The notes under the pieces are model-generated. The model was not told the DNA's origin. It made no database searches and was given only the letters and a program-made list of their open reading frames with translations. A program made the position numbers and the translations under genes. A DNA stretch of 41,880 nucleotides, taken from NCBI GenBank assembly GCA_030583685.1, contig CP129470.1, positions 701,412 through 743,291 on the forward strand, given 5' to 3'. This document shows positions 13,447 to 35,907 of the stretch, in pieces. Source of the DNA: Candidatus Dojkabacteria bacterium (GTDB taxonomy: Bacteria; Patescibacteriota; Dojkabacteria; GCA-002793355). Position 1 is the first letter of the stretch, and each line of letters starts with the position of its first letter.

Positions 13447-13995
13447 CTACTCCTTCGGAAACCAAACGGAAATTTCTCTTTTTGCCTCAGCTCGAGACGT
13501 TGATCGGTGGATTGTGTTGAAGAGGGCTCTGCGTTTTGCGTGTGAGAGTGCGAGTGAGTCAGTTGAATACATCCCTCGAATGGTGGATAAATCGAGCTCT
13601 GCCGGCATGTGTGAGCCTGCCACTTTTTTCACTTTTTCTACTGCATTTGGTCCATACAGAACTACAACAACGATTGATTTCTTAGTGAGTTGTTTTATCG
13701 ACCACTGGTATATAACTTTCCCAATTTCAATGGGGTTGCAGGAGTGAAATATTTTCTGTGCATGTGACTGGGATTTATAAAGGCTTAACGCCTTTTCTCC
13801 AACTGCTTGCAACCACTTTTCATCTTTACCCATAGCATAGTGAGCCTGTGCTTGCTCCTCTGAAGCGACGATTAGCTGTAACTTCGTAATCTTGAGTCCG
13901 ATATCTTCAAATTTCTGGAGAATTCTTCCGACGAGACCACGCTTAACTGAATCTGCTTTAATAATCACAAGAGTTGATTCCTGTAACATAAGCAA
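13447..13995 (-). CDS. ndk: nucleoside diphosphate kinase with internal insertion
   Basis: LVIIKADSVKRGLVGRILQKFEDIGLKI, STIRGMYS and the catalytic-His region NTIHRSTS match NDK. At 182 aa it exceeds the usual roughly 140-150 aa. Confidence 0.7.
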   Translation of the reverse strand: MLMLQESTLVIIKADSVKRGLVGRILQKFEDIGLKITKLQLIVASEEQAQAHYAMGKDEKWLQAVGEKALSLYKSQSHAQKIFHSCNPIEIGKVIYQWSIKQLTKKSIVVVVLYGPNAVEKVKKVAGSHMPAELDLSTIRGMYSTDSLALSHAKRRALFNTIHRSTSRAEAKREISVWFPKE

Positions 13996-23347: not shown

Positions 23348-24198
23348 GAAGATGCCTTGCGGTTGTGCTCAGTATAGGGGTAGTCTCATTTTTTTTATCT
23401 CTCTCAGCCGTTTCTGCTCGTTCAATTTTTACTCAGTCGCTTCTTGAACCTCGTGTTTCTGCTCAAAGCACTCTCTGTGTAGCACATTACCCTGTTGTGC
23501 TTTCATTGCCAGGAAATGACGAATATAGAATGGTATGTCATACTAATTATGACCGTATATTCGAGGAATTTGGTTATCGTTACGAGGAATATGAAATCAC
23601 CTTCGATACGACAAAAAATGGGAAAAGGACCATAAAAGCAGTTCCGGTCACGAAAAAACGGATACTTACGTGGGAAAAAATTCCCTACTCCTCCGAGATT
23701 ACCTATACAAAAGAAGTACCTCATCGTAAAAAAATTGTTGACTCGCCAGGAAAGAATGGAAGACGAGGAATCGTGACAGAAGAAGTAACTTTTCCAGATG
23801 GAACGAAAAAGAAGAAGGTTGTTTCTCGATGGGTTGAACGTGAGCCGGTCGTCGAAATTGCCCGTATAGGGACACAATATGATTTAGCAGTCGAGGAAAT
23901 TAAAGGCACGCACGTGCATTATTGGAAGAAATTAACCGTATTGGCAACTTCATATGATAGCACTTGCCGTGGTTGCAATAATATTACGGCGACCGGTGCT
24001 TTCTTGCGAAAAGGAGTTGTCGCCGTGGATCCGAGAGTTATCCCCCTGTATACAAAAATGTACATACCTGGCTACGGTTTTGGGCAGGCGCTCGACACGG
24101 GAGGTTTTATCAAAGGAAATAGGATTGATTTGGCGTACGACGATATCCGTTACGGAGACTGGAGTCGACGATGGGTCACCATTTATCTGATTGATTAG
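23344..24198 (+). CDS. cell-wall protein with G5 and 3D (MltA/RlpA-like) domains
   Basis: Signal peptide or anchor, then the G5-like repeat EKIPYSSEITYTKEVPHRKKIVDSPGKNGRRGIVTEEV. The C-terminal 3D domain reads VAVDPRVIPLYTKMYIPGYGFGQALDTGGFIKGNRIDLAYDD. Confidence 0.7.
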   Translation: MRRCLAVVLSIGVVSFFLSLSAVSARSIFTQSLLEPRVSAQSTLCVAHYPVVLSLPGNDEYRMVCHTNYDRIFEEFGYRYEEYEITFDTTKNGKRTIKAVPVTKKRILTWEKIPYSSEITYTKEVPHRKKIVDSPGKNGRRGIVTEEVTFPDGTKKKKVVSRWVEREPVVEIARIGTQYDLAVEEIKGTHVHYWKKLTVLATSYDSTCRGCNNITATGAFLRKGVVAVDPRVIPLYTKMYIPGYGFGQALDTGGFIKGNRIDLAYDDIRYGDWSRRWVTIYLID

Positions 24199-24896
24199 TA
24201 ATGCTTAACAAGGTATTCCTGTTCGATAATAAAAGGCGAGAGTTGCCTTTTACAGATACGTTTCCAGACAGTTGTGTCTTCTGGACCATAATCTTGATTG
24301 GTCTGAAGATTAGCTAAAAAATCTTTTGGTGTCATCCAATAATTTTCTCCAAACTCATTTCTTTCTTGTAAAACACCAACAGGATCGTGGGAAACACAAT
24401 AATGATAAAACGTGTCTTCAAGAAGTTCGTTACGAGAATTTCGTTTTATACTGCGTAAAACACCAATAAAGGTAAATTGGGCTGCGAGGTTAGTTTCTTC
24501 AAGTAGCTTTCTGCGTGCCGCTGATACAATAGATTCTCCAAGCAGAATCTTTCCTGCAACTGAAGTCAAATCGCCGTAAAAAGGACTTCGTAATCGTTTT
24601 TGCACAAGTAATTCTGTGTAATTATTACGGAATACTGCGAGTGCGACAGAGTTCTTAAACAACTGTTGTGGTATTCCCTGCGCGTTCATTTTCGAGGCAA
24701 ACTGTTTACCTCGTTCAGAAAGCTGATAATGGCTATCTTTTTTTGTTAGGAACTCTTTCTTTACCAGTATTTGTAGATGGTAGTTAAACAAGTCGTTGTC
24801 GACACCTGGTATTTGTAATTCGCTGTATCGTTGAGGCAAAGGTTTTTGAAGCAATTTCGTGATAATCTGACGTTGCAGGTCATGAATTTCTTGCAT
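24195..24896 (-). CDS. winged-helix plus Nudix domain protein
   Basis: The N-terminal wHTH-like region (LFNYHLQILVKKEFL) is followed by the Nudix box GKILLGESIVSAARRKLLEETNL. TATACT lies 5 nt upstream of the ATG. Confidence 0.55.
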   Translation of the reverse strand: MQEIHDLQRQIITKLLQKPLPQRYSELQIPGVDNDLFNYHLQILVKKEFLTKKDSHYQLSERGKQFASKMNAQGIPQQLFKNSVALAVFRNNYTELLVQKRLRSPFYGDLTSVAGKILLGESIVSAARRKLLEETNLAAQFTFIGVLRSIKRNSRNELLEDTFYHYCVSHDPVGVLQERNEFGENYWMTPKDFLANLQTNQDYGPEDTTVWKRICKRQLSPFIIEQEYLVKHY

Positions 24897-24937: not shown

Positions 24938-25714
24938 TTGAGCAGGCAAATGTGTGAAAATTATGTTATGAATTCAAACGCAATACGGCAATATCTGAAC
25001 GCTCTTGACGATCAGCATACTGCTTCAAAAAAAATAGCAATTTTTGCTGACTTTGATGAATGTGCGACAGAACAACATTTATCTCGAATGGTTACCGAAG
25101 CAGTACTTAAAGGGAAATCGACACCTGCAATAGAGATGGCAAAAAAAGACAATACTACTCGAGGGTTGCATATACTGGGTAATGTTTATATAGGATTACC
25201 CTTACTGAAGTTTACGCAAGTGATTGATTCGGTCGTCGATATTGCAACTCCACGAAAAAACTTCGTGAAATTCCTAAATTTTGTCGCATCTGAAAAGGCA
25301 GTCGTCTTGTATTTTGTAAGTTCTGGCTTGTCTATGGTAATTTCACGATTTTTAAACAAGGTACACAAAGAAACGTGTTCTTTTGTGTATACAGTCGCGA
25401 CCTCGATGAATACGAACGAACAGGGGACAATTTCTTCTCACGGCGCGTTGTTTGGAGTTGCAGAGAAAGGTCAAGTGGTGTCATATTTACGAAAGAAACA
25501 CAAATATGCTTGTTGCGTAACGTTAGGGCACAGTTCGGGTGATTATGAGTTAGTGAAAGCCGGTGACAGAGGTATGCGTCTCTGTTTCGATGACAGCCCG
25601 CAACTTCATAAGGTCGCTGACAGGATGATTGAAGACTGGGACTGGGGGCAAGTGGAAGCGTTAGTTAAAAGCAAATTACGAACAGTAACGGGGCTAAGTG
25701 AAGCTTTGGGCTAA
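24938..25714 (+). CDS. HAD-IB-like phosphatase family protein
   Basis: Motif I-like IAIFADFDECAT, motif II VSSGLS and motif IV-like GHSSGDYE. The start (TTG 24938, ATG 24950 or ATG 24968) is uncertain. Confidence 0.45.
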   Translation: MSRQMCENYVMNSNAIRQYLNALDDQHTASKKIAIFADFDECATEQHLSRMVTEAVLKGKSTPAIEMAKKDNTTRGLHILGNVYIGLPLLKFTQVIDSVVDIATPRKNFVKFLNFVASEKAVVLYFVSSGLSMVISRFLNKVHKETCSFVYTVATSMNTNEQGTISSHGALFGVAEKGQVVSYLRKKHKYACCVTLGHSSGDYELVKAGDRGMRLCFDDSPQLHKVADRMIEDWDWGQVEALVKSKLRTVTGLSEALG

Positions 25715-25785: not shown

Positions 25786-27879
25786 ATGGCAAAAGCCGAA
25801 AACGCAAAGATTGACCTACATTTAGTTCGAAACTTTGGTACGATTGCACACATTGATGCAGGAAAAACGACAACTTCTGAGAGAATGTTGTACTTTACGG
25901 GAAAAACTCACAAAGTTGGTGAAGTTCACGAAGGTGCAGCAACTATGGATTATCTTGCTGAAGAAAAAGCACGAGGAGTCACCATCGTTGCGGCTGCAAC
26001 AACTTGTTTTTGGACAAAAGAGGGAGTAAAACATCGATTGAACTTAATTGATACCCCTGGACACGTCGATTTTACAGCGGAAGTAGAGCGATCTCTACGT
26101 GTCCTTGACGGTGCCGTTGTTATCTTTGATGGTAAGACAGGTGTTCAAGCACAAACTGAAACAGTCTGGAGGCAAGCAGATAAGTACCATGTTCCAAGAA
26201 TCTGTTTTGTTAACAAGTTAAACATCGTTGGTGGAGATTTTTATGCAAGCCTGAAGTCTATTCAGGAAAGATTATCAAAGAACGCAACAGCATTGGCTTT
26301 GCCTATTGGAATTGAAGATAATCTGACGGGACTTGTTGATCTTCTTGATCAAAAGGCTTATATCTACAAAGATATTAATCAATTCGATTTGGAAGAAGTA
26401 CCTGTTCCCGAGGATATGAAGGAAAAGGTTGCGGAATATCGAAATATTCTTATTGAAAAAATTGTTGAGTTTGATGACAAATTGATGGAAATGTACCTGG
26501 AAGGTAAGGAAATTCCTGTAGAAGATTTGCGAAAAACCTTACGAAAGGGCACTATTCAGAGTGGAATCTTCCCTGTTCTTGGGGGTAATGCTCGTGGCCC
26601 AATTATTAGGCAGTTACTTGATAATATTGTGAATTACCTACCTTCGCCTCTCGATGTTCCCCCTGTCGAAGGTACAAATCCTAAGACTCAGGAAACAGTC
26701 ACTCGTCATCCAGATGAAAAGGACCCGCTCTCAGCATTGGTATTTAAAGTCGTGAGTGATGAACATGTTGGGACATTGTCTTATGTTCGAGTCTATTCAG
26801 GAGTCCTAAGACCAGGGTCGTATGTCTGGAACTCAACAAAGAATGAAATGGAACGTATCGGTCGAGTTCTGCTGATTCATGCTGCCCACCGAGAAGAAGT
26901 GGAAGAGCTTCGAGCAGGAGAAATTGGAGGAGTCGTCGGCATGAAAAAGAGTGTCACGGGCGACACGCTTTCTGATCAAACAAACCCAGTAATTCTGGAG
27001 AATATCAAATTTGCTGATCCTGTTGTTTCTGCCTCAATTTTCCCAATGACCAAACAAGATTCCGAAAAAATGGCAGATGTCTTGGCGAAAGTTCAGGTTG
27101 AGGACCCTACCATTAAAGTTAAGGTTGATCCTGAAACTGCTGAAACAATCATTATGGGTATGGGGCAGTTCCACTTGCAGATCTGGACTGAGCGTATGGC
27201 GAGTGCAATGGGGTTATCTACCAGATTAGGTGAGCCAAAAGTTGCTTATCGGGAATCAATTGGAACCTCTGTTAAGATGGAAGGAAAGTTCGTTCGACAG
27301 TCTGGTGGTAAAGGACAATATGGACACTGTTGGCTTCGCCTGGAACCACAAGAGCGAGGTGCAGGGTTCGAATTCATTGATGAAGTAAAGGGTGGCGCAA
27401 TTCCTAGAGAATACATTCCTGCAGTTCGCAAGGGTGTTGAAGAGGCGTTGCAAGCTGGCGTAATTGCAGGATATCCAGTCGTTGATGTTAAAGTCGCCGT
27501 TTATGATGGGTCTTATCACGATGTCGATTCCTCTGAAGCTGCCTTCAAAGTCGCCGGTGCCCAAGCGTTTAAGGATGGTCAAAAAGCCGCTCAACCCTAC
27601 ATCCTTGAACCAATTATGAAGATTGAAGTCATGGTCCCTGATCAATATCTTGGTGAAGTGACTGGTTTACTCAACAGTAAGCGAGCACAAATTCAAGGTG
27701 CAAGTGAACGAGCAGGATTACAAGTTATTCTTGCAGACATTCCCTTGTCAGAGACTTTTGACTTTACCACAAGGCTTCGTGCATCAACCTCTGGTCGTGG
27801 GTCATCGTATATGGAGTTCTCTCATTATGACAGAGTTCCAAATTCGTTGGTCGCACAATTGGTGCAAAATGCGAAATAG
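25786..27879 (+). CDS. fusA: translation elongation factor G (non-canonical G4 motif NKLN)
   Basis: AHIDAGKTT and DTPGHVDF are present, and the five-domain EF-G aligns over the full 697 aa (for example HDVDSSEAAF, GMGQFHLQI). Confidence 0.95.
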   Translation: MAKAENAKIDLHLVRNFGTIAHIDAGKTTTSERMLYFTGKTHKVGEVHEGAATMDYLAEEKARGVTIVAAATTCFWTKEGVKHRLNLIDTPGHVDFTAEVERSLRVLDGAVVIFDGKTGVQAQTETVWRQADKYHVPRICFVNKLNIVGGDFYASLKSIQERLSKNATALALPIGIEDNLTGLVDLLDQKAYIYKDINQFDLEEVPVPEDMKEKVAEYRNILIEKIVEFDDKLMEMYLEGKEIPVEDLRKTLRKGTIQSGIFPVLGGNARGPIIRQLLDNIVNYLPSPLDVPPVEGTNPKTQETVTRHPDEKDPLSALVFKVVSDEHVGTLSYVRVYSGVLRPGSYVWNSTKNEMERIGRVLLIHAAHREEVEELRAGEIGGVVGMKKSVTGDTLSDQTNPVILENIKFADPVVSASIFPMTKQDSEKMADVLAKVQVEDPTIKVKVDPETAETIIMGMGQFHLQIWTERMASAMGLSTRLGEPKVAYRESIGTSVKMEGKFVRQSGGKGQYGHCWLRLEPQERGAGFEFIDEVKGGAIPREYIPAVRKGVEEALQAGVIAGYPVVDVKVAVYDGSYHDVDSSEAAFKVAGAQAFKDGQKAAQPYILEPIMKIEVMVPDQYLGEVTGLLNSKRAQIQGASERAGLQVILADIPLSETFDFTTRLRASTSGRGSSYMEFSHYDRVPNSLVAQLVQNAK

Positions 27880-27991: not shown

Positions 27992-29158
27992 ATGGCAACA
28001 TTTGAACGAAATAAGCCACACTTTAACATTGGAACTCTTGGTCACGTCGACCACGGAAAGTCAACACTTTCTCGTGCAGTACTTCGTGCATTTGATCCAC
28101 AGTGGCAAGCAACTGCAGATAAGATTGATAAGGCACCTGAATCACGAAATCGAGGAATCACTATTTCGATTGCTCACGTAGAATTTGAAACACCAAATCG
28201 ACACTATGCATGGATTGACTGTCCAGGACACAAAGACTATATCAAGAACATGATTACTGGTGCAGCTCAATTAGACGGTGCGTTACTTGTTGTTTCTTCA
28301 ACAGATGGTCCAATGCCTCAAACACGAGAGCACGTCTTGTTGGCACGACAGGTTGGTGTTCCAAAACTCGCAGTTGTTATTAACAAATTCGGTCAGACAG
28401 ATGATGAGATCCTTGAACTTATCACCGAAGATGCTCGCGACTTGCTTTCAAAGAATGGTTACGATCGAGAAGCACCTGTCTTTGTCATTGATGCATTTAA
28501 AGCATCAGAAGGTGATGAAGAGTGGGTTGGAAAGGTTCAAGAAATGATGGCAAAGGTTGACGAATACTTCGAAATGCCAGAGCGCGAAATGGATAAGCCA
28601 TTCTTGATGGGTATTGAAGATGTCTTCTCAATTACTGGACGAGGAACTGTTTGTACTGGTCGTGTTGAACGAGGAACATTGAATGTTAACCAAGATGTTG
28701 AACTTCTTGGTCTCGGACACAAACCAGTCAAGACAACCGCAACTGGACTTGAAATGTTCCGAAAATCACTTGATCAGGTTGTTGCAGGTGATAATGTCGG
28801 TGTACTGGTCCGTGGTATTGAAAGAAAAGATGTTGAGCGAGGTATGGTATTGGCAGCTCCAGGATCCGTTACTATGCATACCGAATTCAAGGCAAGCGTT
28901 TACGTCCTGAAAAAGGAAGAAGGTGGACGACACACTGCATTCGTCAGTGGATACCGACCACAGTTCTACATTAAAACTGCAGATGTTACTGGTGAAGTAA
29001 CCTTGGCAGATGGTGTCGAAATGATTATGCCGGGAGACAACGCAGATCTTACTGTTAAATTGATTGTTCCAGTTGTTATCGAAAAGGGAATGAAGTTCGC
29101 TGTTCGAGAAGGTGGAACGACCGTAGGTGCAGGAGTTGTCACCGAAATCGTTAAATAG
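27992..29158 (+). CDS. tuf: translation elongation factor Tu (non-canonical G4 motif NKFG)
   Basis: [19 protein letters not shown] and a colinear match to EF-Tu through domain III ([19 protein letters not shown]). 388 aa. Confidence 0.95.
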
Positions 29159-29215: not shown

Positions 29216-29539
29216 ATGGCAAACGACACTGGTTCAGTAAAAATCAAAGTGAAACTCGCTGCTTACGATATTAAGCTTCTTGACACAACAGTCAAAAATA
29301 TCGTTGCAAACGTAGTTAAAACAGGAGCTCAAGTCGTTGGGCCAGTTATGCTTCCTGTTGAAAGAAAAGTCTGGGCAGTTAATAAATCACCTCACGTGTA
29401 TAAGTCATCGATGGAGCATTTTGAAATGCGTACACATCGCAGACTTATATTGATTTCTCAATGGAATCCAAAAACAATCGAGGCATTGCAAGGTGTTAAT
29501 GTTCCTGCAGGTGTATCAGTTGAGTTGAATCAGAAATAA
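29216..29539 (+). CDS. rpsJ: 30S ribosomal protein S10
   Basis: Family match (KIKVKLAAYD...SPHVYKSSMEHFEMRTHRRLI) and operon position. Confidence 0.95.
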   Translation: MANDTGSVKIKVKLAAYDIKLLDTTVKNIVANVVKTGAQVVGPVMLPVERKVWAVNKSPHVYKSSMEHFEMRTHRRLILISQWNPKTIEALQGVNVPAGVSVELNQK

Positions 29540-34793: not shown

Positions 34794-35319
34794 AGAACGA
34801 TTCGAAAAAGAAATATTACCGAAGTTCATGGCAGATCATGGTATTACCAATCCAATGGCAGCTCCAATTCCACAGAAAGTTGTTCTCAACATGGGGATTG
34901 GCGAAGCGCTAAAAGATAAGGGAGTTGTCGAGCCTCTTCTGAAAGATTTAGAAGTAATTGCAGGACAAAAACCAACGCCAACGAAGGCAAAAAAGAGTAT
35001 CGCAGATTACGGGCTTCGAAAAGGTGATGTTGTCGGCTTGAAAGTGACGCTGAGACGTGATAGAATGTGGCACTTTATTGATAAGCTCATTAACATCGTT
35101 TTACCGAGAGTTAAAGACTTCCGAGGTATTTCTCCAACAGCGTTTGACGCAAAAGGAACATACACATTGGGAGTGACTGAACTCGTTGTCTTCCCTGAAA
35201 TTGATGCGACAAAAGTCGTTAAGGCAAAAGGTTTTGCAATAACAATCACGTTCTCAAACGGAACGAAAGAGTTAACAAGCGATTTAATGAAAAGATTAGG
35301 TTTTATTTTTAAAGAATAA
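34780..35319 (+). CDS. rplE: 50S ribosomal protein L5
   Basis: Family match (KVVLNMGIGEA...) and operon position. Confidence 0.95.
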   Translation: MKPLKERFEKEILPKFMADHGITNPMAAPIPQKVVLNMGIGEALKDKGVVEPLLKDLEVIAGQKPTPTKAKKSIADYGLRKGDVVGLKVTLRRDRMWHFIDKLINIVLPRVKDFRGISPTAFDAKGTYTLGVTELVVFPEIDATKVVKAKGFAITITFSNGTKELTSDLMKRLGFIFKE

Positions 35320-35325
35320 GAAACG

Positions 35326-35520
35326 ATGTCAAGAAAAACTCGCGAAGCAAAACATAAAAGACTGCTGAAAAGAGCACCTTTTAAAACCCGAATTTATAAT
35401 CAATGCTCACGATGTGGAAGGCGCTCTGCATATATCCGAGATTTCGGTCTTTGCAGAATTTGCTTCCGTGAACTTGCGCATCAAGGATTACTTCCAGGTG
35501 TAACTAAATCGAGCTGGTAA
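35326..35520 (+). CDS. rpsZ: 30S ribosomal protein S14, zinc-binding type Z
   Basis: 64 aa with CSRCGR...CRIC (CxxC-N12-CxxC). Confidence 0.9.
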
Positions 35521-35523
35521 ACG

Positions 35524-35907
35524 ATGACGAACTATAGTATTGGAGATGTATTAATAAGACTTAAGAATGCTGCAATGGTCAGCAAGAAGGTTATTGAGGT
35601 TCCAAAGTTTAAGTATGCAATTTCTGTCTTAGAGGTGTTAACCAAGAAGGGTTTTATCGAGGGTTACGATATCATGGGGCGTGAAATTTCAGTCAAAATG
35701 AAATATTCAGATCGTGGTCTGAGTGCAATTCAAGATATCAAATTGTTTTCTCGCCCTGGGCGACGATGGTATGTAAAAGCTGAAGAGATGAGACCAGTTC
35801 GTTCCGGAACAGGAATTCAAATTGTATCGACACCACAAGGTGTTATGACAACTGCCGATGCAAAAAAGCAGAATGTCGGAGGTGAACTTATCTGTGAAAT
35901 TTGGTAA
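35524..35907 (+). CDS. rpsH: 30S ribosomal protein S8
   Basis: IGDVLIRLKNA start and operon position. Confidence 0.95.
   Translation: MTNYSIGDVLIRLKNAAMVSKKVIEVPKFKYAISVLEVLTKKGFIEGYDIMGREISVKMKYSDRGLSAIQDIKLFSRPGRRWYVKAEEMRPVRSGTGIQIVSTPQGVMTTADAKKQNVGGELICEIW

Follow-up and report, generated by a model that had tools for sequence, protein, structure and literature searches.

The window is a stretch of 41,880 nucleotides from the genome of a Candidatus Dojkabacteria bacterium (WS6, Patescibacteria; assembly GCA_030583685.1, contig CP129470.1, positions 701,412 to 743,291 of the forward strand), and it contains a tuf gene for elongation factor EF-Tu in which the two guanine-recognition motifs, G4 and G5, are both changed. 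The G4 motif NKxD of EF-Tu is among the most conserved motifs in biology and is the textbook determinant of guanine specificity. The tuf gene (27992..29158, plus strand) encodes a 388-aa protein with domains 1 to 3, as recognized from the open reading frame, structure matches, Pfam, TIGR00485 and an AlphaFold2 model. It stands in the gene order fusA-tuf-rpsJ-rplC, which is continued by the S10-spc operon. Residues are numbered as in E. coli EF-Tu unless the window protein is named.

The first motifs of the gene are intact on the plus strand: the G1 or P-loop GHVDHGKST at 28040..28066, switch I RGITI at 28151..28165, and G3 DCPGH, including the equivalent of the catalytic His84, at 28217..28231. 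G4 reads NKFG (28382..28393, plus strand, window residues 131-134), which departs from the classical [N/T]KxD, and the Gly codon ggt at 28391-28393 takes the place of Asp138. The QTDDE loop after G4 (28394..28408, plus strand) has one residue fewer than the canonical MVDDEE and runs into helix D. G5 reads DAF instead of SAL (28490..28498, plus strand, window residues 167-169). Compared by sequence alone with S-A-[K/L], Ala174 is kept, Ser173 is replaced by Asp (codon gat, 28490-28492) and Leu175 is replaced by Phe. A preliminary description of this DNA had given the same NKFG, DAF and codon positions, with P-loop, RGITI and DCPGH intact, and our sequence and alignments agree with it in all of them.

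Solved EF-Tu structures aligned end to end with the tuf product (HMMER, best E = 1e-162). In these alignments NKFG stands opposite NKCD, DAF stands opposite SAL, and one gap follows G4, with QT-DDE facing MVDDEE. The Pfam domains are GTP_EFTU (PF00009) and domains 2 and 3 (PF03144 and PF03143), and the TIGR00485 equivalog score is 594.8 bits with a cut-off of 522.4. The AlphaFold2 model has the ordinary EF-Tu fold and secondary structure, with a mean predicted local distance difference test score (pLDDT) of 87.3 and values of 88-96 around G4 and G5. The aminoacyl-tRNA (aa-tRNA) pocket is also present: H62, E209, D210, F212 and T222 of the window protein match H66, E215, D216, F218 and T228 of E. 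coli, all in invariant alignment columns. Two other identities were considered and rejected. A pseudo-GTPase, that is, a nucleotide-dead EF-Tu-like protein, was ruled out by the intact G1 and G3; an ATP-using TRAFAC derivative of the YchF or SpoIVA type has motifs different from NKFG and DAF, and the window protein is an EF-Tu orthologue.

Genuineness, copy number and distribution of the variant

The EF-Tu motif variant is genuine and no sequencing error. An identical protein of 388 aa appears on 23 contigs that were assembled independently; ten of these were inspected, and each came from a different sequencing run. Among these contigs only seven nucleotide positions vary, all seven are synonymous third codon positions, and the codons of G4 and G5 are identical. 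An origin of the variant in sequencing or assembly has a negligible probability, with one identical protein in 23 contigs from at least ten runs and the same motifs in more than 100 diverged relatives. The preliminary description, which had held sequencing error to be unlikely, was right in this point.

The gene is also under constraint. Between the window tuf and its 87%-identical orthologue at locus L085 (metagenome-assembled genome GCA_964525295.1), the ratio of nonsynonymous to synonymous substitution rates (dN/dS) was 0.093 at a dS of 1.06. The Phe codons within G4 and G5 differ synonymously between the two genes, and the amino acids are retained. Judged from its sequence, the window tuf product is the working EF-Tu orthologue, under strong purifying selection. 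The preliminary description had also taken it for the working EF-Tu, which is matched with the TIGR00485 score, the operon position, the dN/dS of 0.09 and the retained catalytic and aa-tRNA residues.

The genome scan returned one tuf locus per Dojkabacteria genome, and no second, canonical tuf from Dojkabacteria was found among 80 scanned loci or 120 homologues. The window tuf is therefore probably the sole EF-Tu gene of its genome, as far as these sequences indicate. It could be imagined that it is an accessory or decaying paralogue and that a canonical tuf elsewhere does the work, and the copy search covered loci and homologues rather than whole genomes. But the gene has its place in the str/S10 operon at all loci, its equivalog score exceeds the cut-off and its dN/dS is low, as given above; neither the homologue search nor the genome scan gave a canonical EF-Tu labelled Dojkabacteria, and Dojkabacteria genomes are only about 1 Mb. 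We regard a paralogue as very improbable.

The homologue search gave about 100 EF-Tu sequences with the variant, at identities down to about 63%, and those with a name were from Candidatus Dojkabacteria, for example WKZ30291.1 on a 1.09-Mb contig and MBN1374440.1. In a scan of species-representative genomes the variant was present in eight loci (L001-L008), most of them labelled Dojkabacteria or candidate division WS6. The remaining 72 of 80 loci were canonical, including Beckwith-, Shapiro-, Sacchari-, Berkel- and Paceibacterota genomes of the candidate phyla radiation (CPR). In a joint alignment, N-K-x-D was found in 89/89 EF-Tu sequences outside the clade, and Ser at the first G5 position in 88/89. 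Against this background the pattern of the window protein is far outside chance. All 104 sequences without NKxD (104/104) fell in one group, among them those named Dojkabacteria or WS6. In this clade of 104, G4 is N-[K/T/V/Q/E/D/L/N/I/Y]-F-[G, rarely P/K/E/D/L] and G5 is [D/N, rarely S]-A-[L/F/Y]. The variant is therefore no peculiarity of a single genome and is by these alignments common to every Dojkabacteria EF-Tu sampled and rare elsewhere. We found no description of this feature in the full-text literature that combines Dojkabacteria, CPR or Patescibacteria with EF-Tu or NKxD.

A rough census was made with 150 representatives of EF-Tu-like clusters (50% identity) from 1.8 billion proteins; such representatives are mainly fusions, fragments and degenerate paralogues. 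Among the 150, those with intact G1 and G3 nearly always had NKxD, and most of those without NKxD also had a broken P-loop or G3, which marks them as degenerate paralogues or fragments. Two representatives, P0367 (430 aa, with lysine-rich insertions) and P0335 (363 aa), have intact G1 and G3 together with NVKK and NVKY at G4. They may be independent cases of G4 loss.

The purine pocket across the clade

The pocket was compared in a dereplicated set of 25 clade and 46 outgroup sequences, with mean internal identities of 69% and 72%, respectively. The entropy of Lys136 was 2.58 bits in the clade and 0 outside; that of Asp138 was 1.19 bits and 0, and that of Ser173 was 1.36 and 0.15 bits. Asn135 and Asp142 were kept in 25/25 clade members and Ala174 in 24/25, and position 137 had a new residue, Phe, in 24/25. 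The one-residue deletion after G4 and the G5 loop context xA[LF]KAxxG are conserved in the clade. G1, the switch I Thr and G3 DxxGH with its catalytic His are invariant across clade and outgroup. The loss of the specificity Asp, as first described, is confirmed, and the change is wider in scope: the clade can do without the NKxD Lys as well, and has a fixed Phe at the x position.

Residue 138 is mostly Gly, and Pro, Lys, Glu, Asp and Leu also occur. Residue 139 is often Glu or Asp, and can be Lys, Gly, Gln or Thr. Ser173 is replaced by Asp or Asn in 100/104 clade members and is retained in four lineages. Among these, L006 (NKFPGA...SAL) lacks an acidic or amide residue at all three of the positions 138, 139 and 173. 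The preliminary description had proposed to look for covariation of G4 and G5 across an alignment. Strict covariation was rejected, as Asp, Asn and Ser are all found at G5 alongside Gly at G4. The neighbour-joining tree was too weak for ordering the events.

The changes are not confined to the pocket. About 20 otherwise near-invariant positions are replaced in clade EF-Tu, among them A29R, E55S, Y69F, H78L/W, A85K and P111V/A, and helix D has V149I, E150K/T, E152D and a variable R154. A29R, E55S, H78W/L, A85K and the helix D changes stand at positions with a conservation of 90% or more outside the clade. In the window tuf the clade-specific replacements are at residues 28, 51, 74, 81 and 144-149 (28073-28075, 28142-28144, 28211-28213, 28232-28234 and 28421-28438, plus strand). 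Switch I RGITI has become KSITI in most clade members, and the subclade of the window retains RG. Such replacements outside the pocket might reflect co-evolution with EF-Ts or with the ribosome. Helix D is the EF-Ts docking helix in the E. coli EF-Tu-EF-Ts complex. Within the clade it is conserved in its new form, with Ile149 and Asp152 fixed, which indicates continued constraint and is by itself no sign of EF-Ts loss.

The neighbouring EF-G and gene order

Immediately upstream of tuf is fusA (25786..27879, plus strand), which encodes a 697-aa EF-G identified by its Pfam domains and a TIGR00484 score of 921 with a cut-off of 659. Its G4 is NKLN (26212..26223, plus strand), with Asp changed to Asn. 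Its G5 is GGNAR, aligned as GGNA-R (26581..26595, plus strand), compared with G[ST][SA][FLY]KNKG; an Asn has replaced the Ser, with deletion of one residue. Every EF-G seen from Dojkabacteria has NK[L/I/V]N together with GG[D/N]x-R and lacks the KNKG stretch. According to the preliminary description, two neighbouring translational GTPases had lost the same residue, each with a changed G5. G4 and G5 of EF-G are indeed altered, but its Asp has become a conserved Asn and is not simply lost.

The same EF-G variant was present in L056 (Berkelbacteria), L049 (Saccharibacteria) and L033 (CPR-like), and EF-Tu was canonical in all three. L019, labelled Saccharibacteria, had a canonical EF-G. Because the EF-G change is present in these three non-Dojkabacteria CPR genomes with canonical EF-Tu, it is wider than the EF-Tu change and is probably older.

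Downstream of tuf is rpsJ (29216..29539, plus strand) for S10, the first gene of the S10-spc ribosomal protein operon. The order fusA-tuf-rpsJ was found in every Dojkabacteria locus examined, deep branches included, except L007, where the 10 kb upstream of tuf contain no fusA. The canonical fusA-tuf-rpsJ position noticed in the preliminary description holds, with the correction that rpsL-rpsG is not upstream of the window fusA; a HAD-like gene and a NUDIX gene are there instead. The genes preceding fusA are a winged-helix and NUDIX hydrolase gene (24195-24896, minus strand) and a 258-aa gene without a Pfam match (24938-25714, plus strand). It is pure speculation that a NUDIX enzyme beside elongation-factor genes could be relevant if non-canonical purine NTPs must stay low.

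The fusA-tuf spacer of the window is only 112 bp. In some Dojkabacteria a gene of about 280 aa from the CDP-alcohol phosphatidyltransferase family lies between fusA and tuf (L005:6618-7448, L006:2393-3247), and in L007 such a gene is directly upstream of tuf (L007:8992-9819). This inserted gene was considered as a nucleotide-related partner and was rejected from its family assignment.

No gene for IF2, LepA, Obg, Ffh, FtsY or EF-Ts (tsf) was found in the window, in the 10 kb beyond each of its ends or in the regions that flank tuf at ten Dojkabacteria loci. In relatives, no GTPase is adjacent to truB, which lies just past the window end (extension locus L081) and where synteny is conserved. 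FtsZ of L090 (L090:3430-4623, minus strand) was the only other GTP-binding protein reached at the loci examined; it belongs to an ftsA-ftsZ-ftsW cluster, which together with groES lies just upstream of fusA.

Two further observations concern other genes of the window. In the window, rplE and rpsH are separated by some 200 bp (35319-35524), at the place where S14 (64 aa) is encoded in L085 and other relatives; this length is below the open reading frame cut-off used. The nucleoside diphosphate kinase gene (13447-13995, minus strand) encodes 182 aa compared with the usual length of about 140 aa, and its Pfam NDK match falls in two stretches, which suggests an insertion or an N-terminal extension.

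Nucleotide use and comparison with known systems

In canonical G domains the G4 Asp accepts N1-H and N2-H of guanine and the alkyl chain of the Lys lies over the ring, the Asn touches N7 and links the loops, O6 is bound by the backbone NH of the G5 Ala, and the Asp is supported by the G5 Ser (PMC11594714, PMC7952092). In the Dojkabacteria clade there is no longer a constraint on Asp138, the reader of the N1/N2 edge, or on Lys136, which covers the base; the catalytic, tRNA and ribosome-facing features of the protein are intact. We consider, at a probability of roughly one half, that the window gene encodes the primary and probably only EF-Tu of the cell with a rebuilt purine pocket, which would still cycle on GTP and bind it more weakly and less specifically.

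In this rebuilt pocket three elements would keep the base in place: the contact of the G5 backbone to O6, Asn135, and hydrophobic or aromatic packing, for which Phe137 (window Phe133) and, in the subclade of the window, Phe/Tyr175 (window Phe169) could serve. The selection of 6-oxopurines would be kept through the backbone contact, and reading of the 2-amino/N1 edge would be weak or optional. Asp167 of the window protein is placed at the site of the Ser that normally touches the G4 Asp, and Gly134 would give it room, so it could accept N1-H and N2-H directly or via water. The G5 Asp or Asn would then be a nearby but dispensable acceptor. Weaker GDP and GTP binding, faster spontaneous exchange and poor discrimination among GTP, inosine triphosphate (ITP) and xanthosine triphosphate (XTP) are expected, with ATP still disfavoured.

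It might also be that the compensation is exact, the carboxylate having moved from G4 to G5 (Asp/Asn173) or to residue 139 and specificity, affinity and EF-Ts dependence being unchanged. In canonical GTPases, as seen in Ras and EF-Tu structures, the G5 Ser hydrogen-bonds the G4 Asp, so position 173 adjoins the vacated site. The 100 of 104 clade members with Asp or Asn there, the independent change of Ser to Asp/Asn at the same G5 position in EF-G, the Glu or Asp at residue 139 in many lineages and the conserved helix D with its fixed Ile149 and Asp152 are consistent with such a move. The gain of Asp/Asn at one G5 position in both factors is the best argument that this position now matters for the base. 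However, Ser173 remains in four lineages, one of them without any substitute acid, Asp and Asn interchange freely at 173, and a moved carboxylate would not explain the loss of Lys136, which is important for the affinity of E. coli EF-Tu. We regard full compensation as rather doubtful. The relocated guanine contact, which had been suggested in the preliminary description, is thus plausible and not obligatory.

Returning to a weakened but GTP-using EF-Tu, its retention of GTP appears to be more economical than a nucleotide switch, because the EF-G change, with loss of the G4 Asp and Ser to Asp/Asn at G5, occurs in CPR genomes whose EF-Tu is canonical. This occurrence alongside a GTP-type EF-Tu speaks most strongly for continued GTP binding by such pockets. 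FtsZ of L090, a Dojkabacteria locus with the variant EF-Tu (NVDL...SAL), keeps the helix-7 Phe and Asp, which we take to be guanine-binding residues in E. coli and S. aureus FtsZ; these residues give weak support to ordinary GTP use in that cell. In a survey of the PDB, O6 was bound by the G5 backbone NH or by other residues in 85.6% of guanine complexes, and many GTP-binders had no NKxD (PMC11594714). Yeast survives on eEF1A D156N as its only copy with raised misreading (PMC1885216), so translation can be maintained by a factor of this kind, with some loss of fidelity.

Some points weigh against this interpretation. Switch I and helix D are also changed, at positions that do not vary elsewhere, so the alteration extends beyond the base pocket. 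Hwang and Miller reportedly found that changes of Lys136 or Asp138 cripple the GDP/GTP binding of E. coli EF-Tu, so some compensation must exist in Dojkabacteria, and this compensation is itself inferred. SpoIVA, an Era-derived ATPase, obtained its ATP preference through loss of the NKxD Asp and a new acidic G5 residue (PMC7952092), so a signature of this kind can also be the mark of a switch to ATP.

Following this precedent, the EF-Tu of Dojkabacteria, and perhaps the CPR-type EF-G, could have become an ATPase or a base-indifferent purine-NTPase that runs on the larger ATP pool, which seems rather unlikely to us. Both NKxD specificity residues are unconstrained, L006 has no acidic residue at 138, 139 or 173, and the parallel alteration of G4 and G5 in two elongation factors of the same genomes suggests that the cause lies with the nucleotide. 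In SpoIVA and in engineered Era, loss of the NKxD Asp with an acidic G5 is sufficient for ATP preference (PMC7952092). Many GTPases were also shed in CPR genomes, and der and era are missing in Dojkabacteria (PMC12641178). But Ala174 and the G5 context xA[LF]KAxxG are conserved, the element by which canonical GTPases select 6-oxopurines through a backbone NH, and no new strictly conserved side chain for reading adenine has appeared, since Asp, Asn and Ser all occur at 173. Engineered D-to-N EF-Tu and Ras gained binding of XTP and not of ATP, according to the work cited in PMC7952092, and the EF-G variant occurs with a canonical GTP-type EF-Tu in other CPR lineages. It is quite doubtful that Dojkabacteria elongation factors no longer read the guanine edge and that EF-Tu, possibly with the CPR-type EF-G, accepts ATP or any purine NTP. 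If it were true, protein synthesis would be partly uncoupled from the GTP pool, EF-Ts would perhaps be unnecessary, and there would be a natural exception to GTP-driven translation elongation.

How Dojkabacteria EF-Tu selects its nucleotide is a testable question. Every Dojkabacteria EF-Tu sampled dispenses with the requirement for both Lys136 and Asp138 while strong selection is kept, which makes a natural experiment on how much GTP recognition translation really needs. It also bears on how nucleotide affinity and exchange-factor dependence are tuned in tiny, nucleotide-scavenging cells, on whether translation can run on another NTP, and on where changes could safely be made in engineering orthogonal elongation factors driven by XTP or ATP. 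For motif-based GTPase annotation and marker-gene alignments, NKxD should not be assumed in CPR lineages.

Compared with canonical EF-Tu (E. coli TufA/B, Thermus), the window protein is about 60% identical over its full length and has the same three domains and operon position, with identical G1, G2 and G3 motifs, catalytic His and aa-tRNA pocket. It differs in having NKFG and DAF where the canonical protein has NKxD and SAL, and in the residue deleted after G4. Oncogenic Ras changes (K117N, A146T and changes of D119) weaken base binding and speed up spontaneous nucleotide exchange. These fast-exchange alleles are also G4/G5 substitutions, but they are somatic disease mutations in a signalling switch and not the lineage-wide state of a translation factor.

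The engineered, XTP-dependent EF-Tu D138N and Ras D119N lack the G4 Asp as the window protein does, and the window EF-G has the same Asp-to-Asn change. They are single laboratory changes which keep the Lys and the G5 Ser, whereas in Dojkabacteria the change arose naturally and has become fixed in a class of bacteria, with Gly rather than Asn, Ser to Asp/Asn at G5 and the loop deletion in addition.

Alleles of the NKMD motif of yeast eEF1A are said to have a lower need for the exchange factor eEF1B-alpha. The mutants N153T, D156N and D156E include an EF-Tu-family factor without the NKxD Asp as the only copy (PMC1885216). They are laboratory alleles with a fidelity cost, D156N giving 1.7-fold more near-cognate misreading (PMC1885216).

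SpoIVA and YchF/Ola1, the ATP-using TRAFAC descendants, lost the NKxD Asp naturally and gained a new polar or acidic G5 residue, as is the case here (PMC7952092). SpoIVA has NSxR at G4 and SxE at G5, with the acid two residues past the Ser, YchF has NxxE, and both are paralogues with new functions (PMC7952092). In Dojkabacteria, by contrast, the change affects an orthologue, the essential translation factor itself, and the acidic residue takes the place of the Ser.

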